A DNA stretch of 63,078 bases, filler included, from Bipalium vagum (Eukaryota), in NCBI GenBank assembly GCA_037834085.1. It is 3 parts of 3 records of this genome, joined end to end, with 100 filler letters (N's around TTAATTAATTAA, not from the genome) between each part and the next. Parts side by side here need not be neighbours in the genome. Positions count along the whole stretch, not along the records: positions 45,269 to 63,078 come from JBBMKC010049845.1; 2 more parts are not named here. The stretch is one strand, 5' to 3'. Position numbers and translations under genes: made by a program. A model generated the notes under the pieces. That model was not told where the DNA came from. It did not search any database and worked only from the letters and a program-made list of their open reading frames with translations. Below are positions 45,269 to 63,078 of this stretch, one piece after another (positions within the stretch are counted from its first letter, which is position 1; every line of letters begins with the position of its first letter).

Positions 45269-45470
45269 AGAAGGATGTTAATCAACATTACCACACATCT
45301 GTCGACTCTCTAAAAATTAAAATACAAGAAGTGATGACGAATCTTTAAATAGTGATGCGAGAAATTGTCGACATATCTATGTGTCTGGTCAATGAGATTA
45401 AGAAATTTTTTGCACATGTCGATACCAATTTCATTCTATAATTTTCGAGTTATATTTGGCTAAGCTCTGT
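45269..45470 (+). mobile_element. 3' end of a DD37D (maT)-like element
   Basis: (E)KDVNQHYHTSVDSLKIKIQEVMTNL resembles the C-terminus of the 55929-57242 transposase; ends ...CTG-TA. Confidence 0.5.
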
Positions 45471-46816
45471 AATATGTTGAAAATATTCACACAATATTTC
45501 TTAACATTTTCCTTTAAAAAATGTCCTTTAATCAATATCGATTGAAAGTGTAAATATAATTATTGCTCAATATTATGAAAACTAATTACGGTAAAATTCA
45601 TTCAAAGTTATATCAGAATGTTAATAATTTACAACATATATTAATTTTATAATTTCTTAAAAATTATAATTAACCTTTTTCTATATTAAAAATTAAACAT
45701 TTATTTAAGAGCTTTTTCATTAAGGCAACCTCAGGTAATTAATTATTCAGCTCAGAATACATTCGATCTGAACTGAATAATTGTAGCTCTCAATAATCCA
45801 TTAATGGAAAAGAAAACCTGGTGGAAATAGAACGAAGATATCCGACTTAAAAGGTAATTGATTTTTCAACCCAGCCGAATACGTTCGGGCTTAACTGAGT
45901 AATTAAAAGCTCCCTGTTTATCCATTATCAAATAGTCATTGGCTGGCGAAGAGACTAATTTAAATATAATGGAGCATCAGTGTCCATAATCACATAGAGT
46001 CGCTCGAGATTTAGACGAAAATCAGAGGGAAAATTTAGCAACAAATTAGAGAAATAAATTATGAAATAAAATTGTACACTGAGATAAAGATAGAATCAGA
46101 GTGAATCGAGAAAACTGGATAGGATAATTACAGAATAAAGTGGTCGACCTTTATATTACTATTTGTGATTTGATACTTTTGTTTTCCTTTCTTGGTAATT
46201 GAAAAAAAATTTATCAATATTTTTTTTGCCCGCATAGAGAGCGGACCAAAAGAAAATCACTGGAATCAGAAAGATATAATAGATAGTTTAGAACAAAGGA
46301 TAAAAATAAACTGATTAATATTCTTTAGAATATTAACATTAGTTTTAACTCTCTCTTAGGCTTATTTCAATTTTTCTAACATGTTTTAACCCTAATAAAA
46401 CTCTAGTAAAGAGGAATATCAAGAATGATACTTGATTCAAAATAATTAATCATGAAATTAAAATATATAGATAATCCTGGGAAAATTCAATCCAAAATAA
46501 AAGCATTTTTTCAGTGGATAGACTTTCTTCAAGTCATTTTTAAGTGAAATTTAATTTCCATTACTATTGAAAAAAGAATAAGAAAAACAAAGAATTCAAA
46601 GATCCCGAAGTTAACATTTTGATCTTATAACAGTGAATCGATCCTTGTTATAATCGTGTGAGAGAGAAGTAAGACAGGTAAAAACTAGGATAAAAAGGTG
46701 AATCGAATCTAATTGAAAAAAATTAAACGCGTACGTTAAAATATCCAAAACAATAAATGAGTCAGATTAACAATTTATTATGGGTTTTATTAAGTACTTT
46801 TTCACTCCTTCATTCG

Positions 46817-48247
46817 TCAGAGGAAATAAGGCGTGGTAATACGTGGTGGAATGGTTCGATTTTCATCCGGAACGGCGTTAAATTGTAAGATGTTGGGCCT
46901 ATCAGTGTTGTTCTTGAACTCTAATACTGCAGCCATGTTACCACACCGGTAACAGTAGTTAGGAGCCGACCATACTGTCACTAATTGATTGTTGAATTGA
47001 TATCGAATACCTTCTTGAATCAACTGATGAGCTCGACAAAGTAAAGTTAGACCGTTTACATGAAGAAATTCTTTTGTGACCTGAAAAGAAGGTTCAGGTA
47101 AAAGGTCAAACAAATCATTTTTGCTTCAGTTTCACTTTTATAATAAATTTGATAATTAGCTAAATAATATATAATTTAATTTGATCTATTTTTACAATGT
47201 TTAATAAAAATAAGTATAATTTCGATTTTTAACCATTTCCAAGAATTTAGTCTTAGAAAAGTATAAAAATAACTATAATAATAGTCATATATATACACGT
47301 TTCTTTTTTAAAATAGAGTTTAGTAGGAGACTGGTGAAATGATGAAAAAACAATTAATTTTTAAAATAATTTCAATAAACTTGTATAAATTACATAACTT
47401 GAACATTTTTTAAGTAAGCGTGTTAAATTCAATCGAAATTTACAAAGTTCAATAAGCAATTTGAGAGAAGTATAGTTATAATATTTGAATATATTACTTC
47501 AGCTTTTTAAAAAGAATCAATAATTAATTCAAAATAAAACATTTTCAATAACCTGTTCTCCAAATAAATACCCAGCTCCTCGAGGACTGGGTCGCCAATT
47601 CTGAATGACATCATCTGGATCTGACCAAACCAAGTCACAGAAAGGTCCTTTTTGTGGTATTTCTTGGTTACGGTCCAATAACTGAATTTGATCACATGAA
47701 TTTATTTCAGGTGACAAACCACCATGGACACACAATATGGTATCATCAATTAATGCAGCAATCGTCATTAAGTCAAATAATTTACAACATCGTTTCCATG
47801 GCTCAGCATTTCCGTATTTATTAAGACATTCATCATAGAAACCATAAACCTATACAATAATACAATAGATACCATCCATTAAAAATTACACACTTGAGTA
47901 ATTTGTCGACTTTCATGATTTCCTCTCAATAGAGTAATTTTTTCTGGATATTTCGCTTTTAAGACAAGTAACAATGTCAACGTTTCAAGACTATAATATC
48001 CTCGATCAACAAAATCACCCATAAATATATAATTTGTATGTACAATATCTCCACCAGTTCTGAAAAGTTCTAATAAATCATAGAACTGCCCATGAATATC
48101 TCCACATATAGTAACTGGTGTACTAACAGGTTGAATGTTGCATTCTTCAATTAATAGCAAACTAACAAAATCACAAAGTCGATTCAGATCGTTTTCAGGG
48201 AGATATTTACATTTATAGGCATGTTCAAGCCATTCATCGATATTCAT
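46817..48247 (-). CDS. PPP6C: Serine/threonine protein phosphatase 6 catalytic subunit, 304 aa; exons 48247-47894, 47849-47553, 47080-46817
   Basis: PPP motifs [28 protein letters not shown]; PP6-specific N-terminus [13 protein letters not shown] and C-terminus TTPYFL. Phase-0 GT-AG introns of 44 nt and 472 nt join ITQ^VYGFYDE and FGEQ^VTKEF. Confidence 0.96.
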
Positions 48248-50189
48248 TTTTACCTAAAATTATTTTGAATAAATATAATGTTACAAGAAATATCAAAATC
48301 CGTTAATTTTAAAATCATGCAATTATTTACATAAATTAAATTTAATTTAAACAAAAATATAACACGATGTAAATATTTTATATTTAAATAAAGTTACAAT
48401 ATGTTAAATATTTATAAGATTTATGAAAGTAGTAGTGTTTTATTGTTGTATTATTGATATTTACTTATTAATTTATTTAAATGTGTTTATGTTAGGTATA
48501 AGAAGAAAATAATAGGTATAAATAAGAAAATTTGATTTAAAAGAGGAAGACGTAATAAATGTACTGTAAATTATTAAACTCAAACATTTTTTTGATTTAT
48601 TTTATAAATCTTTTAGAAATAATTCATGATAAAAATTTAATCAAATTATACAAACTATATAGCAATTTAATTCATTTAAAAATTTTGAATCCGTAGAGTT
48701 ATGACCCGGATCCACTTAAAAGTGATCACAGCCTGACTCCAAAAATGGCCATTTTAAATGAGGTGCTAATTACTTACCTTTTGGTTGGTGTTTGTTAGGG
48801 AATTGCTATGTTCTTAGCTGAAGCGTCCTAAATCCTTGATCGCATTAGTAAGGACAATAATATTTTCCATAAGAAAGTATATTGATTTTGATATTTTTGA
48901 GCGGGATTGACATAGAGACAAATGATTACAATGACTACGATTGATTATCGACTCTAGTTGAAACTGATTATATGCGGTATTGAGTAAAGATTAGCCAGAA
49001 AGTTTGCAGATCATCAATTAATTTTTTTGCAATCTGATTTTGGACAAAGGAGTATTTATTCTTTATTTACTTTTGAACAAGTGAAAAAAGCGTCCCTAGT
49101 TTTTATTCGTATTTAGTTTAAATTAATTTGGTGTTTTTTTCATAAATATTTATGAAGGAAACAGTACTAAAGTTTAATTAGAAATTAACTTAAAGCAAAT
49201 AAAAATTCTATTAAATTCAAAAAGAATTTCTGTTTTTTGATTAAAGAAATTAAAAAATTATAATTTACTGTTATTCAAAAAAATTGTAGACTGAAGAAAT
49301 TTTTCTCGGGTTTTTTCCTGATCGCTGTTGGTCTTGTTTGCTTTTCTAATTGATTAGTAAACACAGAATTGATTGAAAAATATTCTTCTGGTTATTGTCT
49401 ATGTAATCCGTTCTATAATATTTGGTGATTTTCTCAATTAGTGAATGAATCCAGACTTATTGTTTATTAACAAAATTTCTAAGCGATCAAAATTTTGATC
49501 GGAAATAAAATGATTAATTTTTTCCAAAGCTTCATATGGATAATCTAGGTCTTTTACCACCATCAAGTCGACTGCAATCCATATATTAACTATTCTATAA
49601 TTCATTTCATAAGTTCTATCAACTTTCACTAACACTTTAAAATTGAAAAACCAAGATAAAGAAATTATTTAACTTTTAAAGCAGTCTCCATCACTTTCAA
49701 TGAGCAGTATCTATTCACAAATATAATTTTCATTATCAGGTTTATAAAATTCTCTGTTGATATTTCTTTCGAGGCTAACTGACAGGAAAGGAAAGAACGC
49801 GCCTGGTAGCCCAAGAATTAGAAAAACATATTTCATCTTCTCCTCACCATGAGTAGATCATTATATCCATGAATCAATTTATTTTCTGAAAAAATGGATA
49901 ATACATGTTAGTGCGAATTTTATAAAAAATAAATCACTAAAAAATTAAGTCATCATGAAAATACGATAAAACATGAAAAAATTAAAAAATGAAAATACAA
50001 TGGTTAAAAAGCACAAAAATAATAGCAAAAAAGTAATTTTAAATATTTTAGAAGTTCAACAAAAATAGACAAGTTTGTTTTAACAAAAAGAATAGATTTA
50101 CAATTGGCTATTACAAATAATAATTTTTAAAATTAATTTTCAGTAAGATCTTTTAATAAAACAAACGCTTTTAATAAAACAAATTTACC

Positions 50190-50492
50190 ATGTCTGTGTC
50201 ACATAATGATAAGCGTTTAGAAAACTATGAAGAAATATTAAATAAATATTATGAAACAGAAGAATTAAATATTTTCCAAATTTCTAAACCAGATTCCATT
50301 CCAATAGATATAATTAAAAAAGCAGCAATGAAACATGATGTAAAATATCTTTCAAAAGATTTAAAAGATCGTCATGTTGCTGATGTTGAAATGATGCATG
50401 AAATGAAAAATATTAAAAATGCAACCCCAGGAGAAAAACTTGAAAAAGTTTTAGTAAAATTAATTGTGAAAAGCAAGATCACCGTTGATTAA
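50190..50492 (+). pseudogene. Parvovirus-type phospholipase A2 domain (PLA2X) of a Maverick/Polinton/adintovirus-like element
   Basis: PIDIIKKAAMKHDVKY...RHVADVEM matches P.N..D.AA..HD..Y...R..AD; the YxGPG Ca-binding loop is not seen; it lies directly upstream of the integrase. Confidence 0.7.
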
Positions 50493-50900
50493 GGAGAATT
50501 ATATCCTCCTTTTGTCTTAGGTTTACGATTAGAAAGGTTTGCAAAAAATATTATCAATGAAAAATTCTAATAATTAAAACCACAATAAAGAAAACATTCA
50601 GCAAATGAAAGGATTTTAGAAAACCTAAACAAGTATCTTAAAGTTAAGGTCTTTAATAAAGATGATATTTGGTGTGTAGATTTAACCTTTGTACCAGAAG
50701 AGAAAGATTATAAAAAATATTAACAGTTATTGATTTATACGCAAGATATGCTTTTACTATTCCTTAAAAAAATAATACTGGAAAATTTATAATAGATGCT
50801 TTTGATCAAATATTTGAAGACTACCAAAGAAAGCTAAAAACTTTGGGTTGATGAAGGTACTGAATTTTACAATAGTTCATTTGAGGATTTTTATGATGAT

Positions 50901-52832
50901 TAGGGCAAGTTAAATGCAACATAAATGTCATTTTTTGCATTATTTCAATTTTAAAATGCAAAGATTTAAAAGATTTATAATGGTGAATTTGTGTATCATT
51001 CTCAAGATAAGTTATATTGTAAAATTTTTGATACTTTTGTTAAACATGATAAGAAATATTATGTAGCTACTCATCGGAAATGTAAGAGATATTATATGTA
51101 TATTGATTTTTGACATTTTTTATAAATGTAGAAGCAAAGCCTATATATTCAAAAGAAACTTGAAACACAAATGATTAAAAAGGTCGATATAGGCTTTTTA
51201 ACCGGAGCTTACAGTCAATATATTGAGATATTCGTTAAAGCATTAACGTCTGCCAATATTCCCTAGAACAAGTTAAATAATCCAGAAATAATTAAAAATT
51301 TTTCAATATCTTGGTAAACCGCCCATTTTCAAAACAAAGACAAGGTTATATATCTTCCAAAAAATGAAAAATGAAGATATGCCAAAAATAAATAATTATT
51401 TTACAGATGAAAAGATATTTATCGAAATCGACGAAAGTGAAATTATATGTAATAAATATGTAAATATACTATCTGGTATCATAATTACTCCTAGTTGTTC
51501 TGTCATGGTCTTCACGAATACCATCTTCATATTCTTTAGCGATTTGCTGTATTCGTCGAAGACTTATAATTTTATCTTCTCCCCAACGTGTAACCAACAA
51601 TCTGTGGATGACGACGCATGAAAAATTATTGCCAACCAGAGTGTCAATAAAAAAATAAATATCACTTTGTGATGCCATCTAAAACTGAAAAAAAAGAAAT
51701 TTAAATTGGTATACATAGATTATCAAATTAAATTTTCAATTGATTTATTCAAACAATAAAACTTGTAATCATAAATAATGAAATTTATTAAATCTAATAA
51801 ACATATATTTATTTATTAATTTATAATGAAAATATAATTTTGTAAAAACGAAGTTTTTTTGCGGACCCCTATATTTTTATTAAACGTAAATGAAGTGGTA
51901 GATGTTTCAGTTGATAATGAGCTTATTTTGGATTATCTAGATGTAACATTAAATTTCTTCAATATAAAACTGAGCCAGCTTATTTTAATAATTACGAACG
52001 CAGCCAAATATATGATAAAAGCTTTTAAAGTATTAAATAATCAAATCAAGTTCTTTTTTCATATGCATTGCCTTGGACATTGAAGTCATAATTGTGCCAT
52101 GAAAATAATTCAAGTTATATTAATGTTGATTATTGTATTGCCAGAATTAAATTAATCCCAATAAAAAATAAAGCAATACAGTTCTTCCAAAGACATATGA
52201 AAGCCTCTAGAAATGTTATTATTATTAGATGGTCAACAGGGCTGAAAGTAGTATTCTATTATTCTACGAATTTTCCAGTTACGAAAAAAATTGTTAACTC
52301 TATCAAAGATGACGGGATATTAATTAAGCGTGCTAAAGAGGCTTTGGATAATGAAAATGTATTTTTGGAAATAATGGAAATACTAGAAAATTATAGTGGT
52401 TTTATTGATATTTTAGATAAATTTAAGGATTCAAAATATAATATTGGAAAAGGATATCATGCCGTTTTTAACTTAGATTTTGGAAGAGACCCTTTAGAAT
52501 TAAAAATTTATACACATAAGAGATTTAAAGGATAACGGAGCATCGAAATTACTATTATTTAATAAAGAAGAAATATCTCCACCGGACTATATAAATTTAA
52601 ATAAATGTCCACCAACTAATATTGCAGTAGAGCGAAGCTTTTCCATGTTAGGAAAATGTTTGTTAGAGACAGAAATTTTATAATTGAAAATATTTATCAT
52701 TGTTTTTTATAATATTATAATGCTTTTCCACAATAAATCTTGTTATGTAATATTGTTTTTATTTTTTAAATGCCATTTTCCTGCAGTTTTTGAGAAATAA
52801 TGCATTTTTAGTGCCATTTTAAACTTTTCCTG
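50901..52832 (+). mobile_element. hAT transposon (CGGBP1/DUF659-like), 1932 bp, 8-bp TSD ATGATGAT
   Basis: TSD at 50893-50900 and 52833-52840; imperfect TIRs TAGGGCAAGTT-AAA and revcomp CAGGAAAAGTTTAAA; motifs QDKLYCK, IEIDESE, ITNAAKYM, HMHCLGH, IRWSTGL, CPPTNIAVERSFSML. Confidence 0.88.
51480..51870 (-). mobile_element. 5' fragment of a mariner-like element nested in the hAT
   Basis: TIR-like TATAGGGGTCCGCAAAAAAAC; ORF 51469-51678 IHRLLVTRWGEDKIISLRRIQQIAKEYEDG is an HTH-type transposase N-terminus; it interrupts the hAT reading YVNILSG / IFLLNV. Confidence 0.65.
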
Positions 52833-53138
52833 ATGATGATAATGAAATAAAAATATATTTAACTGAAAATGAAGAAAACTTTGCTGTCATTGAAAGATTT
52901 AATAAAACTTTGAAGAATATGATGGTTTAAATATTGACGGAACAAAGGAAACAAAAAATGGTCACATCTTTTACCTCAACTAATTAATTTTTATACCAAT
53001 AAAAAAATTAGATCAATTGCTATATTTCCTAAAGAAGCATGTAAAAATCCAGCAAAGATGTCAGAGCCTTAAAATCGTCCTTTAAAAGTAAAACCTCGTT
53101 TCAATATTAGTGATAAAGTTCAAATTTTTAAAATAATA

Positions 53139-54376
53139 TTAGATGTTCAACTATGACTCGGGCTTTTTTTAAAAAGAAAACAAAGACATTTATTAAAAAA
53201 ATGTTCCATTGGAAGCTACAACCTTTGCCTACCTTTAAGGTAACGAATGCATTCCATGAAAGAAAAACTCTGGCTCTTTTGATGAAATCCAGCTCTCAAT
53301 CCAATTTTGGAGGTCTACAAGGGAACTTAACCGCTCTCCGAAAAGTGCTGATTGCAAAGAGCGGAACAAATGATAATCATAAGGAGCGATGTCTGATGAA
53401 TAGGGTGGGTGAGGTAAGACTTCCCACTTTGTACCTTCTAATTAATTATTTACAACTGAATTAACGTGTGGTCTTGGGTTATCGTGTTGTAAAAATATCT
53501 TTTCGTGTCTAGTCACCCATTCCGGTCGTTTTTCATTCAAAGCTTGCTTCAAACGAATTAATTGTGATCGATAAAGGGAAGATTTTAAAAATTCATAATA
53601 ATCACTCCTTTCTGATCCCACTAGATACACAACATAACTTTCAAACCGTGGACATTTTGTTTCGGTGTTGATGGACCGGGTTTACCTGGCACCACCCAAG
53701 CTACTTTGCGTTTTTGACTGTCATAAAGAATCCATTTTTCGTCTCCTGTGATAATTCGATGGAAAAACCTTTTCCTTTATTTTCTCTGAAGAAGGAGATC
53801 ACAAATTGTTTTTCACTGTTCAATGCATCTTTCTGTCAATTCATGTGGGATGCAAATTCCTAATTTTTGAATAATTCCTAAAGCTGCCAGACGTTTTGAC
53901 ATGCATTGTTGAGTCCCATTTAATGCGACAGCCAGATCAGATTGTGTTTGGCATGAACTTCGTCCAACAGCATTCTCAAATCTCTATCTTCACATTTTTC
54001 TGTGGCTTCCCATGTTCCTTGTCGTTTGTATCATATTGGCCATTTCTAAAACGGCAAAAACAATCTCTACACGTGGTCATCGAGGGAGCATGTTCTCCAT
54101 ATGTATCTCGAAGCAAGCGGTACGTTTCCGCTACAGTTTTTTTGGCAAAAAAGTAATGTAGAATTACTTCCCACTAATTTCGTTTATTTGGAATGAATAT
54201 TGACATTTTGAATCACTGTAATATTTAAACAAGGTATATTAAAACAACTGTCTCGTGATATTATTATTTATATGGTATTTTTGTTTTTAAATCCATTCAA
54301 TATAATTTAGATATAAATGCATACAAAATTTTTATTAACATTTTAAAAAAAGCCGGGGTCATAGTTGTACACCTAA
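53139..54376 (-). mobile_element. Full-length degenerate mariner, mauritiana (Mos1-like) subfamily, 1238 bp
   Basis: 36-bp TIRs TTAG(A/G)TGT(T/A)CAACTATGAC(T/C)C(G/C)GGCTTTTTTTAAAA (4 mismatches), TA on both flanks; MSIFIPNKRN*...KKTVAETYRLL...DKEHGKP, ITGDEKWI, KIFLQHDNPRPH. Confidence 0.92.
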
Positions 54377-54869
54377 TACAATAAAATGGACAGGAAATAT
54401 TTATTATAATGAAGTTTAATATACAAATATAATTGTTTATGGAATCATAGATATAGAAGAAGTAAAAATATTAGGATCATTTCCTAAAAATGTATTTCAA
54501 AAATCATCATTTTAATTTTTATAAGAGTGTGTATTTTATTAGCTCACATTTAATGTATATTTTATTAAAATCGGATAAGCATATTAAAATTTATTAAAAG
54601 TTAAAGATTATAACATGGTTTTATTTGTGTTAATTACTTTTAATTAATTAATTAAAATTTTTTTAGAAATATAATATTCAGTATTTCAATAAGAGATATA
54701 TTTTGTTAAAAATGAAAAGAGAATAGTTTTATCATTATTTAAATCAAAAAAGTTTACTGAAATATTATTTTGTTTATTAAATTTATTAATTATTATTAAT
54801 TTATTAAGCCTTAAAGAAAACTCAATATCACTTAAATTAAATTTTTTTATATACATGTTCTTGTCACTG

Positions 54870-54995
54870 CATAGTATGGGGATCGTTTTCTAGAGATGGT
54901 TACAGTAATTTGATTAGAATTCAACAGCGGCTTAATTCTGTAGGATATGTTGAACTTTTAGGACAGAATCTTCTTCCTTTCGTCGATCAAATGAT
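54870..54995 (+). mobile_element. Short Tc1/Tc3 catalytic fragment
   Basis: IVWGSFSRDGYSNLIRIQQRLNSVGYVELLGQNLLPF. Confidence 0.5.
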
Positions 54996-55928
54996 ATATA
55001 TATCAGATATATTTTCAATTTTATTGTAACCTAATATTTTATAATTATTAAAATATAGATTACTATCTAAAAATTGATAATCAATTTTGAAATAACTTTT
55101 CTAATAAATTTACTTTGTCTTCTAATTCATTTAGGGATTTTACTTTTTGACTAGATTTCATATTTTGATTCTAAGAATTTGTTAATCTAATAATTATAAC
55201 TTTTAGCAGTATTTAAATTCTCTATTATTTAAATTGCTATTTTTACGTATTGTTGAATTTTGAGGTAGTTCATCAAATAAGTTTATTTGATTATAATTAT
55301 TAATTAATGTATTTTATTCAAATGTTCCTTTGATTTTGATGGGATAATAAAGCTGGTTTGGTTTAAAATATTTATTAGAAATATCACAATGAAATGCGCC
55401 CAGTTTGGTATCATTCATTTTCATAATAAATTATTATATATTATTATTAATAATACTTTTACATTCTTCTTTTTTATGATTATTATGAGAAGTTATAATT
55501 AAATAGGAAAAGAAGGAGAGCGATCAATGATCAAAGAATGACAAAACATATTTCATCTTTGACAAATGAAATGAGGATTTACGGTTAAATTCATTGGCTA
55601 ATCATTTTGTAGTCATCAAAGTGTTAAAAACTATTGATTATAAAATGTTAAATAAATTTCCTTCTTAATTTTTATTTTCAAATGTTTCCAGTTCTTTTAG
55701 GTTGTAATTTATCATTTCTCAAAAGTATAATCAATCTTAGCTTCATAAAAATAAACAAAAGCCGTATTAAGTAAATTCAGGCTGCTTAAGTTCTAATTTT
55801 CAACTGTCCTTCAGTTTATATCTCGTGATTCTTCATGAAAATAAGAATATCAAATTATACTTCAACTTTTTATAATAATGAGAAAAAGAAAAACACAAAA
55901 ATAAACAAAACATAACTAAGAACATATA

Positions 55929-57242
55929 CAGGGTGCTTCAGCTATTTGAGGATAAAAGTTGTTAAAATATATCATGATAATTTTTTAGTGGCGCTAAAAT
56001 CGACTTGCAATATTTATTGATGCAGCATTAAAAAATTATTTTTTTTATTTAGAAATGAAAGGTATAACTTTTGAATTAACACAAGAAATGAAAAGGCACG
56101 CAGTTATTGTTGCATTAGCTCCCGGATATAGTGACACAGAAAATTTTCAAATTTCTTAATGTGGCCAAATCGTTTGTCAATAAAATTAGAAAGAAATGTT
56201 TGGCATCTGATCGAAATGTCTAAAAGACATTTCTATATCTAAAAAGAAAATCACATTCCTCACGTTCAGACATTGTCAGAAATGTTAATTTTGTTCAAAA
56301 AATCCAGGATGTTGTTCATGAAAGTCCCGGAACATCAATTACAGAAATTGGTTATCGACTATCGGTTACTGAGTCAACAGTAAGACGAACGGTACACAAT
56401 GATTTAAAATGCAAGTCCTACGTCATGAGAAGAAGACATTTTGTGTCGGCAAAAAGAAAAGAAAATCGTTTAATCCGCTCTAAGTGTTTTTTAAACAAAA
56501 TCAAGCATCCTGATCATCCAAACATGCTATGGTTCTTTTCTGATTAAAAACGTTTTACTCAATATCAAAAGGTTAATAGGAGGAATGATCGATGACTGTG
56601 CTCAAGTGTTTCTGAAGTCCCTAATGTTATGCACACCAAGTTGCCATCATCTTTAATGATATTAAGTGTTGTGAGCAACGAAGATCATGTTATACCTCCG
56701 TATTTCTTTCCACAGGGACTTAGAATTATTGCATCTCTTTATATCGGGTGTCTGGATACATATGTGAAGCCCTGGATTGAAAAAAAATGCACACGGAAGG
56801 CCTTATGTTTTCCAACAAGACTCAGCTCCCTGCTATACAGCATTAAAAAGACAAAAATGGCTATCGCTAAATTTTAACGACCATTTCACTCCAAAATTAT
56901 GGCCACTTAGCTCACCCGATTTAAATACTTTGGACTACTTCGTATGGGGCGTCGTAGAGAAGAAGAGCAAACATCCTCATAATACCAAAGATTCATCACG
57001 GGCTTTTATAAGTCCTGCTATGATAAATATGAACAAAAACAATTTGATCACGGGTTGTAAGCTTTTCAGAAGTCGTCTTGAAGCTGTAATTGACACTGAA
57101 GGCGATTTTATTGAATAAATAAAACTTGTGGACTTAAAACAAATAAAGATTCTAATATTGCTTCAAAATATACATTCTTTTCATTAAACATATTATTTAC
57201 TTTTAATATAAATTTTTGTCCTCAAATTGTTGACGCACCCTG
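55929..57242 (+). mobile_element. Full-length degenerate DD37D (maT/Bmmar1-like) transposon, 1314 bp
   Basis: 29-bp TIRs CAGGGTGC(T/G)TCA(G/A)C(T/A)ATTTGAGGA(T/C)AAAA, TA on both flanks; WFFSD*KRF, FQQD-x37-D (WPLSSPDLNTLDYFVWG), SRLEAVIDTEGDFIE*. Confidence 0.92.
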
Positions 57243-57379
57243 TATTTGTATCATAAAATATTTTATTTCCCTTCTCAATCATTAATAAAATAATGTTAAT
57301 GATAAAATAAATAATAAATATATTAATGAAAAAAATTAAAACCAATTCTTGATTCTGTAATTGTAACGCTTGCCAAGTT

Positions 57380-59340
57380 TTCACTGTAACGATAGAATTT
57401 CCATTAGTGTCTTTTTATGGATTGGAAAGCATCGTCGTAACATCGTCTAACATCACCTAATACTTCTTCCAATGCCCATCCTTTCGACAGGTATTCTGTG
57501 AAAAATTTTCGGTAGTAATTACATTTTCCGAAGAAAATTTACGTATCTTGGTCTCTGAAATGTTTGGCTAGTCCGTCCTTATCCCTTCTTGATCAATTAT
57601 GTGTCCCAGGAACGTTACCTGCTTCTGTAACAAAATACATTTGCTTAGGTTTGCTCGTAAACCAGATTTTGTTATTTTTTGTTGAACGATGTCAAGTGCC
57701 TTGTCGTGTTATCTGAATATATTAAATTTTCGTCCATATATACCATAACACCCTGAACTCATGTTATCACCGTTATCATGAGGTATTAAAAGTGCCACAG
57801 CTATTCCAAACGTCATCCTAGTAAAACACTACGGTGTTTTTTTGAAAGCTTTCTTTTCCTGTGACGAATCATCCAATTATACCTGGTAATATAGATAGCC
57901 CAGATCGACCGTACTGAAATATCGAGTTCCTCATAGATTGTCTAGTAATTCTTTGGTATATGGCATTTTGAATGATTGTCTCTCTGATGTCAAGTTCAAT
58001 TTCCTGAAATTTAAGCAAAACTGCAATTTTTCTTTTTTCCACACACATACATACAAGTGGAGAGTTTCACCTTCAATTGCATTAATTAAGCTCAGTATCG
58101 TCTCATTTATCTTACTTTCTAGGTGTATTGTCTGCTTTCATGGTCTCGTGTTGATTGGGACCACTTGTTACAGTTTTGTATTTCTCAAGTCTGGTGCTTC
58201 AATATCCCATTCGTCAGCCTTGAAGGCTGTTTTACTTTTTTATCACTCTTACTAGATCTGCATTGTCTTTTATTTTAAGAATCTTCAGTGGTCTTCTTTT
58301 TCTTTCGTCATCTGATACTATTCTCAAAAACTTTGTTTCTAAAACGCATAAATGAGCAAATGTTTTGTCAATGGCATCGTTTGTGATTTTACATAGTTGG
58401 AACTCGAATGTCCTTAGAAAGTCGAGCTCTTCCATTTTGGGAATTGTTCCTGGTTTTTCTCTTATACATCTCATCGCCTTCACTGAGACGAATTTGTTCG
58501 CATTTACGGCTGTGATAATGTGCTAATGATAATTCTGTGCCTCAAGTTCCTTCGTAGTACTCTATTAACCTTGAAAAGCATACATGTTTGACAATTGTAA
58601 TCTCTGAATTCTCTTATCTTTCTTATCCTCCAGAGGACAGTTTGACATCCTTCTGCAATGCGGCACTTAAGCGTATATTTTACACATTTTACATTGGTAC
58701 AAGACCTTCTAATATGCGCAACATTCTTGTTATGTTGTTGAACAATTTTGTCAAACGTAGGTTCAACGTATATGTTTTGTTTCTGTCTTGTATTCTATAC
58801 TTTGAATACTCTGGCTAACTGTTGTCCTGTTTGTGGTGAGTGATAATTCTTATAACATTTCTGTATCTTTTTCTAACGGCGTTTATAGTATCCATTTTTT
58901 CTATTCTGTCCAGATTTTCTATATACTGGATGATCCATTCCAAGTCATTAATGTTATGCAACGTGGTACTTTTCTTTATTTCCTTGTTTTTGCTGCAATA
59001 AAGTAAAAATTATTTGTACTATATTTAAATTATCACATATTTAAATTTAAATTGTAAATAAAAATTGTCATATAATTAATATGATCCTGCCAATCTTCGC
59101 CTTTGTCGTATCTGGTTCTGAGGGAATTATCAGATAGACTCACCATCAACAGGTCTTTCGTAACGCCAGCAGAAAAAAATCTTACATTGATCAATAAGCC
59201 TCTCAATGTCATCGCCATTCCTGTAAGTCTTAGACGTAGCGAGCAGGTTCCGAGTCTAGGTGTGGTCGCCAAATTAGCCACTGAAACTGACTCTAAATTA
59301 ATTTTCATTAATGATACGGTTTTCAAAAAGTATATATATT
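57380..59340 (-). mobile_element. Decayed Ty3/gypsy LTR retrotransposon (RT remnant, probable gag region, possible PBS)
   Basis: Minus strand: GTRYFSTVDLGYLYYQV*LDDSSQEKKAF, RMTFGIA, VMVYMDENLIYS, KSGLRANLSKC...VTFLGHII; PBS-like TGGCGACCAC at 59271-59262. Confidence 0.75.
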
Positions 59341-59892
59341 AGTCTTATTTCAAATGAGTTACATAAAGTTTAAAAATATAAAAATGTTGGTAATTCTCGA
59401 GAGTTTCACACTTTCTAAATAATTATTGAAAATAAATGTTATGGTTCAACCCTAAAATCAAATAATTTTTGTTTTTATTCCTTCATTTCGAAAGGATTTA
59501 TTGTTCGTAGTTCAAATAACAATTAGATTAGTGAATTACAATTCATAAAGGACCTTTGAGATACTGACATTTATTTCAGTTCGAAAGGATTCTGATCTTA
59601 AAAATAATAATTAAAAATATTTGGGGAATTTTTCTTAAGAGGATTGTTGTTATAGTAGACTCTTAGTTTTGTAAATCATATATCCTTGTACATTTTTTAT
59701 TTAATTCCAATATACTAATAAAAGTTGAGTCTTAGTTATTTGATATTTAATCTATTATTTTTTTAAGCAAAAATTCTTTCACAGTTAAGCTTTTAATCTG
59801 TTCCAGATTTAATTAAGAGATGAACAAATAATAAATTATATATATAATGACAATAAAAACAAAACAATATTTGAATAATTTATGATATAAAT

Positions 59893-59966
59893 AAATATAA
59901 AATAAAATGATGCTACACATCAAATATAAAATAAAATGATGCAACACATCAAATATAAAATAAAAT
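59893..59966. repeat. Tandem repeat, 29-bp unit x about 2.5
   Basis: AAATATAAAATAAAATGATGC(T/A)ACACATC repeated. Confidence 0.8.
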
Positions 59967-62129
59967 TAATATGATGACATCTATGTAGGAGGAAGTTGGT
60001 AACAGTGGGATTACGTCATTGATGAATTAAACATCATTAAAAGGAAATTAAATGAAAGTAAGATGATGCCATCAGAAGGTAAATTGTAAAATCTAGTATA
60101 AATACACAACTAAAAACCATAATTTTGCTTTTCAAAATTCTAACTTTTTAGTTTATCAGAACTAAAAGTTGATTTGAAAAACTTTACAAAATGATTTTAT
60201 CACAACTTACAACAAAAATAATTTTTTTAAGAACAAAAAACGTAAGTGAATTATTATATTCATTTCTGCTAATTAATCCTACACTGATCGTGAATATCAT
60301 TTTTTGTTTATGGTTTTATTATATACTGTTATTTTATTTATACTGTTTTATAGTTAACATGGTTCTATGTAATGCTCGGACAATAATATTAATCCTTTTT
60401 ATCTTAGATTAACCTACAATATTGGTGCTATACTCAATGTTTGATTCAGACATCACCAGTGAACTCATTGAACTTTAGGTGATTCGCTTGAGTGTCTTAT
60501 TTAAGTCATACTTGTGTTGGGTATTCACCTGATAATAATAAAAAATGAATTTGAATATTAATTTGAAAAATGATCTTTATAACTTTTTATATTGTATATT
60601 CTTTAAGTTATTATTACTTGGACAGATTTCATTTTGAATCGTGAAATGCTATTTTCTGTCGAACACGCTAGATGGAGTTCAATCATCAGATCAGAAAGGG
60701 AACTCGTTGATGGTTTGGGTGCCTAGCTCCAAACCGGATCGGAGAGACGTTTTTTCCTTTTTATTTATTTGTACTCATTTAAGTGCCTAGGTGGTTTCTC
60801 TAAACAGTTACAAAGGGCTTATATCTGGGCTCACCAACTCCAAAGTGTAAATAATAAAAGATTCACGAATAAACAAAGCGATTAACAACATAAGGTATAT
60901 TTGTTATCACAAATAAAAGGTTAGATCTTTTATGCAAAATTGATATTTACAAATAGAAAAATAATTATTTAGTTAATTAAATACCTCGACTTTTTGATAG
61001 TCGAAGAAGTTCTGTTAACAAAATGCGTATTCTGAAAGCCTAGAGCGAAGCAGAATCGAATGAGCGAGAGAACAATAAAAAATATAAGAAAATCTTAAAA
61101 AAGTTATTGATGAGAAGAATTTATTTTTATTACTAATAAACGTTAATTAGTTAATTATTTTAATTTAACTCTATCTGTAAAGATTGGAAATTAATACAAA
61201 TCCCTTACCCCCATTATTACCAGCTGTTTAAAACTTATATACTTAACTTACATTCTGGAGCTTCTCATTGGCTCTTTTCCAACTTTCCAATAATAGATTC
61301 ATCTGTGAGCGGTTGGTATTTTAGGTAAGCTTTATATTATATAACTTTCTATATTTAGTAATTTACCCACTGACTTACTCACACATCCTTTATTTATGGA
61401 AAGTTTCTTTATTTTTTAAGTTATCAGAAGTTTGTGAAAGTTTTTTTTGAGGTTTGTCTGGGTTCAGTATGGTTTTTTTTACCAGTTTTACTGTAGATCC
61501 AAAGACTAATAGCACTGTATTTTCAAAGTTATTTATTACAATTGTCTACTGGCATATTTTTATCTTTAGTCAAATATTTTTTATTATTGCTATCATTTCA
61601 TAAGCTTGATTTGTGTCTTCTCAATTAATTGATATTGTCGCACTTGTCTTATTACGATGTCATTATAATTTCGATCAGTAGCTTATTGTTGGAAACGGAC
61701 TGAACATAAGACAAGAATCTGTTGGTTTTTATGTCAACTGAGAGTAAAGAAGCGACTTGGGTATAATCTGATGTGTGTGTGACAAACTTGAATCTGATTG
61801 TGGGTTATTTGGTAATTAATATTAACGTTTCTGTAATTATTTTTATTTCCGAAAAAGAATAAAAATTATTATTGTTGGATATAATATATATATATATATT
61901 CCATGGAGTTATTGTAGAATCTAACCATACGAAAGATTTGGAAGTCAGAATAAATATTACACTGGATTGGATTAAATATATTGTTGGGTTTACCTAAGAC
62001 ATCCCCCGGGGAAATATAACTAAGTAAAATTAATATTAAATAAAATAAATAAAAAATAAATATTAAGGATCATAATAAATTAATTTTTAGGGAATTGTTA
62101 GGTAATTTTAGAATTTTAAGTACAATTTT

Positions 62130-63030
62130 GAGAATATCTCAAGAATATTTCCCAGATGAAGATCAGTCCCAAACAGTATATAAGCAAAGGGATTTTAGTA
62201 GATTTTAATTTCCGAAATTAATAATCGATATTGAAACATTTGAAACATTTTACATACCAGACGTGCTAGTATCCCCCAAAGATTTTCTATGGGATTCAGA
62301 TGTGGTGAATAGGGCAAGACATAACATCGATATTTCTGTCTTGTAGCCATTGCGAAGTGGAACGAGCAACATGACATCGAAAATTATCCTGTTGGAAAAT
62401 TGGTTTGTCTCCGTCAAAATCATTCATAAAGAGAAGTAAATGTTTTCCTAAAAGCATTTGATAATCAGATTGATTTAGCCTGCAGGTAATAATCGCGAGA
62501 GTCGACGTCCAGTGGTAATTGAAACAAACCCAAATCAACAAGGAAGCTTCTCCAGTGTGTCTATTCGAAAAAGATATTTCCTCCTTTTGCAAATCTTGCC
62601 AATAACATGCGTAACCATTTGATCCATCCAAATTAAACTTCTTCTCGTCACCCCAGATGACAATTTCCCACTCGGTGACTCACGACATTTTCTCTTTAGC
62701 TCAGCAGACACGATTGACTTTATGTTGTGGCTTCAAAGGGGGTTTTAACAACATTCTTCTTTTACCGGATCGTCCCAGATTTATTTAAAATCTTTCTAAT
62801 CTCTACGGATCAATTTAGCTTGAATTGCGTTTTTATTTTCGCACAAGACATGCTTTGGTTGTTGGCATTCCTAATAATTGAACGCTTCGTTGCTGCGGAA
62901 ATCGTTGCCTTAGGACCTCGTGTCTTCTTTTCTTTATTTTTATTCTTCAAAAAGTATCTTAACTACTTTCATTCTTCCTTCATTCTCCCTTCTCGATGTC
63001 GGTTAATCTTTGAATTTTACTCATCTTACT
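62130..63030 (-). mobile_element. Degenerate Tc3-like (DD34E) transposon
   Basis: IWGDEKKFNLDGSNGYACYWQDLQKE, LLIWVCF, IFQQDNFRCH, PYSPHLNPIENLWGILAR. Confidence 0.85.
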
Positions 63031-63078
63031 AAATAATTTTTTTAAATCTTAGTATTCGATAGACAGAAGTACTTACAT

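Follow-up and report, generated by a model that had tools for sequence, protein, structure and literature searches.

A dead Maverick gene in Bipalium vagum derives from a fused phospholipase A2-integrase, a candidate virion polyprotein

A decayed locus in the genome of Bipalium vagum (GCA_037834085.1) carries a phospholipase A2 (PLA2)-like reading frame followed by an rve integrase. Were the two once a single protein and, if so, what kind of element encoded it? The locus lies in the third part (45269-63078, contig C49845) of the 63,078 nucleotides analyzed here, the whole of which we call the window. A first-pass annotation described the PLA2-like frame as running into the integrase through single TAA codons only, and this is what we observed: one frame extends over 50190-50732, with TAA at 50490, 50568, 50571 and 50586, plus a further one at 50721. 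This frame contains the PLA2 residues H-D (50334-50339), Y (50346) and D (50382) and also the first catalytic D of the integrase (50679), while the calcium-loop motif and the C-terminal GxG motif of the PLA2 have decayed. The boundaries had to be redrawn. The Met at 50190, taken at first as the start of the ORF, is not the start, as homology to sister copies begins at ~49850 and a remnant leader is recognizable from 49894. Similarly, the interval 50190..50900 does hold the PLA2 and the start of the integrase, but the integrase resumes at 52833-53136 and 54378-54515. The gene thus spans ~49894-54515 on the plus strand (leader, PLA2, linker, integrase) and is a dead copy broken by stops, frameshifts and two nested transposons:

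49894..50183, plus strand: decayed 5' part, with a Zn-finger-like leader and the PLA2 start, carrying stops and frameshifts (DNA homology from ~49850, frames, sister N-termini)
50184..50495, plus strand: parvovirus-type PLA2 with H-D, Y and D kept and a stop at 50490 (frame, profile)
50496..50600, plus strand: linker to the integrase, with stops at 50568, 50571 and 50586 (frame)
50601..50900, plus strand: 5' part of the rve integrase, with D at 50679, the second D motif at ~50850, and frameshifts (frame, profile)
50901..52832, no strand assigned: nested hAT-like element with imperfect ends (8-bp target duplication at 50893-50900 and 52833-52840)
52833..53136, plus strand: integrase continued, with the catalytic E at ~52892 and the start of the C-terminal domain (homology)
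53137..54378, minus strand: nested mariner with 48-nt inverted ends (HTH_48, E 1.9e-10)
54378..54515, plus strand: C-terminal end of the integrase, without chromodomain (homology to sisters)

The 1.9-kb insert at 50901-52832 matches DUF659 weakly (E 0.02), and its 8-bp duplication suggests a hAT element. One contig of run X1 (possibly the source sample), at single-copy depth, matches 50433-50663 with 0 differences. Because the match is exact, the stops in this interval are not assembly errors. The stops, frameshifts and two nested transposons also rule out domestication of this copy, which is ordinary genomic debris: a lone dead fragment ~1.6 kb upstream of a divergent host gene for a calcineurin-like (PPP-type) phosphatase (47529-48253, minus strand, with a short intron).

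To ask what the intact gene looked like, we collected sister copies from the same genome. Candidates numbered 2178 by DNA and 3776 by protein, of which 40 and 150, respectively, were scored. Sister copies were found that hold both domains in one open frame (456, 496 and 424 aa). Among loci picked by DNA, both anchors were present in 16 of 20, and the two domains were in frame in 10 of these 16 (window included), once without a stop; the expectation by chance is 1/3 (p=0.016). For loci picked by protein, which is a biased pick, 28 of 29 had both anchors, 26 of the 28 were in frame and 19 of the 28 were in frame without a stop. The stops are scattered, any one position being shared by at most 3 of 44 loci (counted by eye). 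The sisters thus have open frames and neither a conserved stop nor a separate start between the domains, which bears out the proposal that the ancestral element encoded a PLA2-integrase fusion. Over 17 copies chosen for their open frames, dN/dS was 0.20 (0.14-0.28) for the PLA2, 0.43 (0.27-0.65) for the linker and 0.23 (0.18-0.30) for the integrase; all three intervals lie below 1, and purifying selection runs through the PLA2, the linker and the integrase. The fusion is real, and the copy in the window is the dead remains of a Maverick (polintovirus) gene present in high copy number.

The profile search that had been suggested for the joint ORF gave a divided answer. The window ORF matches the PLA2 profile PF08398 only weakly (13.6 bits, E 0.086, cut-off 23.9), whereas an open sister ORF exceeds both Pfam cut-offs (PF08398, 27.3 bits; PF00665, 43.2 bits). 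Genome-wide, PF08398 has 14 matches, 12 of them in the family of the window copy and two in a second family (L264 and L265). The second family includes a stand-alone PLA2 (L264:483-831) that closely resembles the PLA2 of fused proteins from outside this genome; in L265 the PLA2 is truncated by the contig end.

Five of the 31 own-genome loci with both anchors carry an insert of 329-428 nt at one site, in the codons of the PLA2 calcium loop (L037:2338-2633, L049:2373-2694 and L023:1054-1359, as well as L011 and L035). Three of the five inserts exceed the cut-off of the group I intron family RF00028 (98.8, 96.6 and 57.6 bits). Such copies would need splicing to produce the integrase, because it is encoded further along the same frame. 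The window copy is free of this insert.

The surroundings of the sister copies identify the element. The window itself gave no hit for capsid, PolB or ATPase, as the first-pass annotation had noted, and none for protease or pX. The element end, AGTAGT, is absent from the window too; an AGTAGT word at ~48428 was considered as the end and rejected. Other contigs preserve more. Pieced together over contigs, the gene order is the AGTAGT end, an unknown ORF, PLA2-integrase, a pX-like ORF, a protease-like ORF, several unknown ORFs, a penton-like ORF, a putative ATPase, capsid and, head-on, PolB. For instance, contig C254987 holds the PLA2-integrase and capsid genes on the same strand, with pX, protease-like, penton-like and ATPase ORFs between them. 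The major capsid protein is of the double-jelly-roll type (PF21738, 60.8 bits), and its gene is linked to PolB on C241985 and C226218; PolB converges on the family's capsid gene in L095 and L102. The pPolB profile PF03175 has 75 matches in the genome, and two PolB types adjoin genes of the family. The putative ATPase is a partial ORF with a P-loop whose match to PF04665 (20.9 bits) stays below the cut-off of 22.8, although its place between the penton-like and capsid ORFs is fixed. The pX-like protein is a separate ORF downstream of PLA2-integrase (PF05829, E 0.0098). The protease-like and minor capsid ORFs have no matching Pfam family, the former giving no peptidase hit, and we presume these identities from position and motifs. 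The rve integrase of the sisters scores 43-57 bits against PF00665.

The AGTAGT end is shared by five contigs with unrelated flanks, with a variant in a sixth, and lies 0.3-0.9 kb upstream of the PLA2-integrase gene where measured. A terminus starting with AGT is a hallmark of Mavericks (Polintons). Many copies are deleted or rearranged, and none of the own-genome contigs examined has both element ends. With a PLA2 profile match above cut-off, and with other contigs that carry the family's capsid and pPolB genes together with putative ATPase, protease-like and pX-like ORFs, the earlier Maverick assignment holds: the family is a Maverick/polintovirus. Near the ends we made two further observations. 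In L009 (107-778, minus strand), just outside the element end, there is an intein-like stretch with a LAGLIDADG endonuclease domain (PF14528, 26 bits), probably from a PolB. In four loci (L090:1282-1473, L092:3911-4153, L050:2962-3258 and L271:1815-2001) the terminal word occurs again, inverted, 190-300 nt further in, possibly as a terminal hairpin.

We then looked for the fusion in other organisms. The search found 422 homologs, and architecture was counted in the best 120. PF08398 and PF00665 occur together in 84 of these 120 (counted by eye), and both domains in 98 of 120 when our own, partly circular, profiles are used; one fused homolog comes from the coral Oculina patagonica, and fused clusters of 114 and 40 members exist. 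Of the 22 that lack PLA2, 5 are gene calls beginning within the PLA2 tail or shortly behind it; the other 17 are close relatives whose calls begin at the integrase start. The active sites are nearly invariant across 94 aligned proteins: PLA2 H/D/Y/D in 93/93/94/94, the G and P of the calcium loop (F/Y)xGP in 94 and 85, and integrase D/D/E in 94/94/93. The first-pass annotation had read the fusion as a sign of a virus-like lineage in this host. Membership in the Mavericks stands, but the fusion is not host-specific: many members of a large group of Maverick integrases share it. Scanning viral contigs with one protein at a time, either the outside fusion P0010 or P0257, gave no match. Many contigs with Maverick-type integrases (L184-L235) lie inside prokaryotic MAGs, which is likely eukaryotic or viral contamination of the bins.

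These results bear on a sceptical explanation, namely that decay or assembly in the window produced the in-frame run by accident, or that the integrase comes from an LTR or Ginger element. The window ORF taken alone does fall below the Pfam cut-off, and our integrase trees contained no Ginger or gypsy references. Open fused ORFs in the sisters and in database homologs refute an accident, however, and the linkage to capsid and PolB, the AGTAGT end and the reads matching the window leave this explanation, as a whole, with almost no probability.

Not every PLA2 of this type is joined to an integrase. Of 3512 PLA2 representatives at E <=0.001 we examined the best 150, many of which are fragments: 29 run on into an integrase, 79 stop within 25 residues and 42 continue otherwise. 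Six proteins (P0157, P0159, P0160, P0165, P0166 and P0211) join a PLA2 of the same type to C-terminal regions other than integrase, one of them protease-like by eye; these may be further fusions, or gene calls that are chimeric.

One may therefore ask whether the fusion is a neutral by-product, a stop lost between neighbouring genes, in which case the link would be labile and bring no packaging benefit. The arrangement outside Bipalium partly fits such a history: among 16 distinct outside loci with both genes, the genes are apart in 10, adjacent with a frame break in 4 and in frame in 2. The group of 17 proteins called from the integrase start, with fused close relatives, points the same way, as does the fact that the trees do not establish a single origin of the link. 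In FastTree, 48 sequences form one branch (support 86) with one fused sequence outside it, and the deep forks of the smaller IQ-TREE run, from which 42 of 88 sequences were dropped by hand, are not settled, so we do not claim a single origin for all PLA2-linked integrases. Elements with separate PLA2 and integrase genes form their own group (starred in the trees). Several results nonetheless speak against a labile link. A clade in which 14 of 14 sequences are fused (support 100) contains the window's family, the distances of the PLA2 vary together with those of the integrase (rho 0.35, 0 of 999 permutations), the linker is under selection, and 74 of 94 proteins lack any Met from the end of the PLA2 to the first catalytic D. 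We consider a neutral origin of this kind improbable.

What the joint protein does may be suggested by its glycines. A GG or GxG motif is present at the PLA2-integrase junction in 85 of 94 aligned proteins, and a GG precedes the PLA2 in 66 of 94 (11 sequences are too short). In the integrase cores, only 3 such motifs occur in 15,180 residues, where ~31 would be expected naively, the sequences being related rather than independent. Because a protease-type GG/GxG sits at the junction and is scarce in the integrase cores, the best reading is a cleaved virion polyprotein: PLA2-integrase is probably cut by the element's own protease, as judged from sequence motifs and from analogy. The PLA2 part would be an internal virion protein for membrane escape and would bring the integrase into the particle in a 1:1 ratio, and an adenain-like protease would cut at the GG before the PLA2 and at the GxG after it. 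The fusion would load the integrase with the entry enzyme at a fixed ratio; the PLA2 would be trimmed at both ends like adenovirus protein VI, and the integrase delivered as in retroviral Gag-Pol. The residue before the junction GxG is mostly K, as against the hydrophobic residue preferred by adenain. Stand-alone PLA2 genes also end in a GxG motif, which may thus be older than the fusion and mark an ancient domain boundary rather than a site kept for separating the parts.

The protein could also remain uncut, with the PLA2 left attached to the integrase as a tether for packaging or to membranes, or with the two domains simply tolerating each other. Linkers range from 3 to 51 aa in the 94 proteins (<=5 aa in 16), and such short ones, down to 3 residues, are compatible with this, as are the 9 of 94 proteins in which the aligned GG/GxG is missing. 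A model of the fused protein also folds as separate, confident domains (mean pLDDT 85.5, pTM 0.59). The integrase fold matches those of foamy-virus and MELD-virus integrases. For the PLA2 fold the top match is a modest one to rice PLA2 (Z 6.4, rmsd 4.2, 92 aligned), with bee PLA2 at Z 5.0; its list of viral folds consists mostly of densovirus and parvovirus VP1 (best E 1.1e-3), and a sequence search of the PDB returned integrases only. Against an uncut protein, the Gly motifs are near-fixed on both sides of the PLA2 and scarce in the integrase core, and related proteases cut such motifs. We regard an uncut fusion as unlikely, though deserving of serious consideration, and favor the cleaved polyprotein.

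Known systems offer partial parallels for cleavage. In retroviral Gag-Pol, the integrase enters the particle as the tail of a structural precursor and is freed by the viral protease. Retroviruses are RNA viruses with reverse transcriptase, whereas ours is a dsDNA element with a phospholipase as the carrier, and the comparison is an analogy only. The protease of mavirus cleaves at GG|X and GX|G, and both an rve integrase and a cleaved, lipase-like hydrolase are present in its virions (Born et al. 2018, PMC6048507); unlike here, the two are separate genes, the hydrolase is an alpha/beta hydrolase and not a PLA2, and the host is a protist. Adenovirus pVI is an internal protein that disrupts membranes and that the viral protease trims at a C-terminal GL|G site (PMC4246237), but it is not an enzyme and has no integrase attached, and again only an analogy can be drawn.

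The closest counterparts in the literature are the Alpha (Mayetiola-class) adintoviruses (Starrett et al. 2021, PMC8502044; also PMC11071296) and the Sf Mavericks with their 'CAP' protein (Geisler 2018, PMC5803895). They share with our family a parvovirus-type PLA2, capsid and rve integrase; their ATPase and protease have putative equivalents here. Their PLA2X, however, joins the PLA2 to a C-terminal pX-like domain and their integrase, which has a chromodomain, is separate, whereas in the window's family the PLA2 is fused to the integrase, pX-like is an ORF of its own downstream (40% over 40 aa to the PLA2X tail) and the integrase has no chromodomain. We saw the PLA2X layout with a separate chromodomain integrase directly in locus L123. 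The chromodomain profile PF00385 has no match in L026 or L028 and is present in the outside fusions P0010 and P0011. The element is a Maverick with a parvovirus-type PLA2, but its layout is not that of a canonical Alpha adintovirus.

We found no description of a PLA2-integrase fusion in a literature search that covered subscription journals and Repbase reports thinly; the available parts of PMC8502044, PMC5803895, PMC3671162, PMC11071296, PMC11131425, PMC11161782 and bioRxiv 2026.06.19.733378 do not describe it, although it may be drawn in the genome maps of Starrett et al. The architecture is visible in the Pfam annotation of public proteins, and the fused ORFs are filed as transposases or hypothetical proteins. 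Their annotation should be corrected to PLA2-integrase, PLA2X not being the only layout. The finding bears on how Maverick integrases enter particles and on whether infectious particles are formed by animal Mavericks at all: a PLA2-integrase precursor that is conserved and bears protease-type motifs would tie integration to virion entry in one gene.

Some outside loci hint at another way of joining the two parts. In three that are otherwise open (L121, L184 and L186), a run of seven A lies where the end of the PLA2 and the integrase frame overlap, with an offset of -1 in L121 and L186 and +1 in L184. There is no Met before the first catalytic Asp in L184 and L186, and one in L121, an element of 15.6 kb with identical 60-nt ends and long open genes. 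In L120, the frame break lies inside the integrase start. The mixed offsets could reflect programmed recoding, or homopolymer decay or assembly error. It is a tentative, rather doubtful extension that a large Maverick clade is Gag-Pol-like, with a virion phospholipase that would carry the integrase in frame in lineages such as that of the window copy and by programmed recoding at the A-run in others.

Elsewhere in the window, at 55922-57249, 62296-62679, 97-720 and 5704-6024, we noted a Tc1-like element with 39-nt inverted ends, a DDE_3 fragment and sugar-transporter exons.
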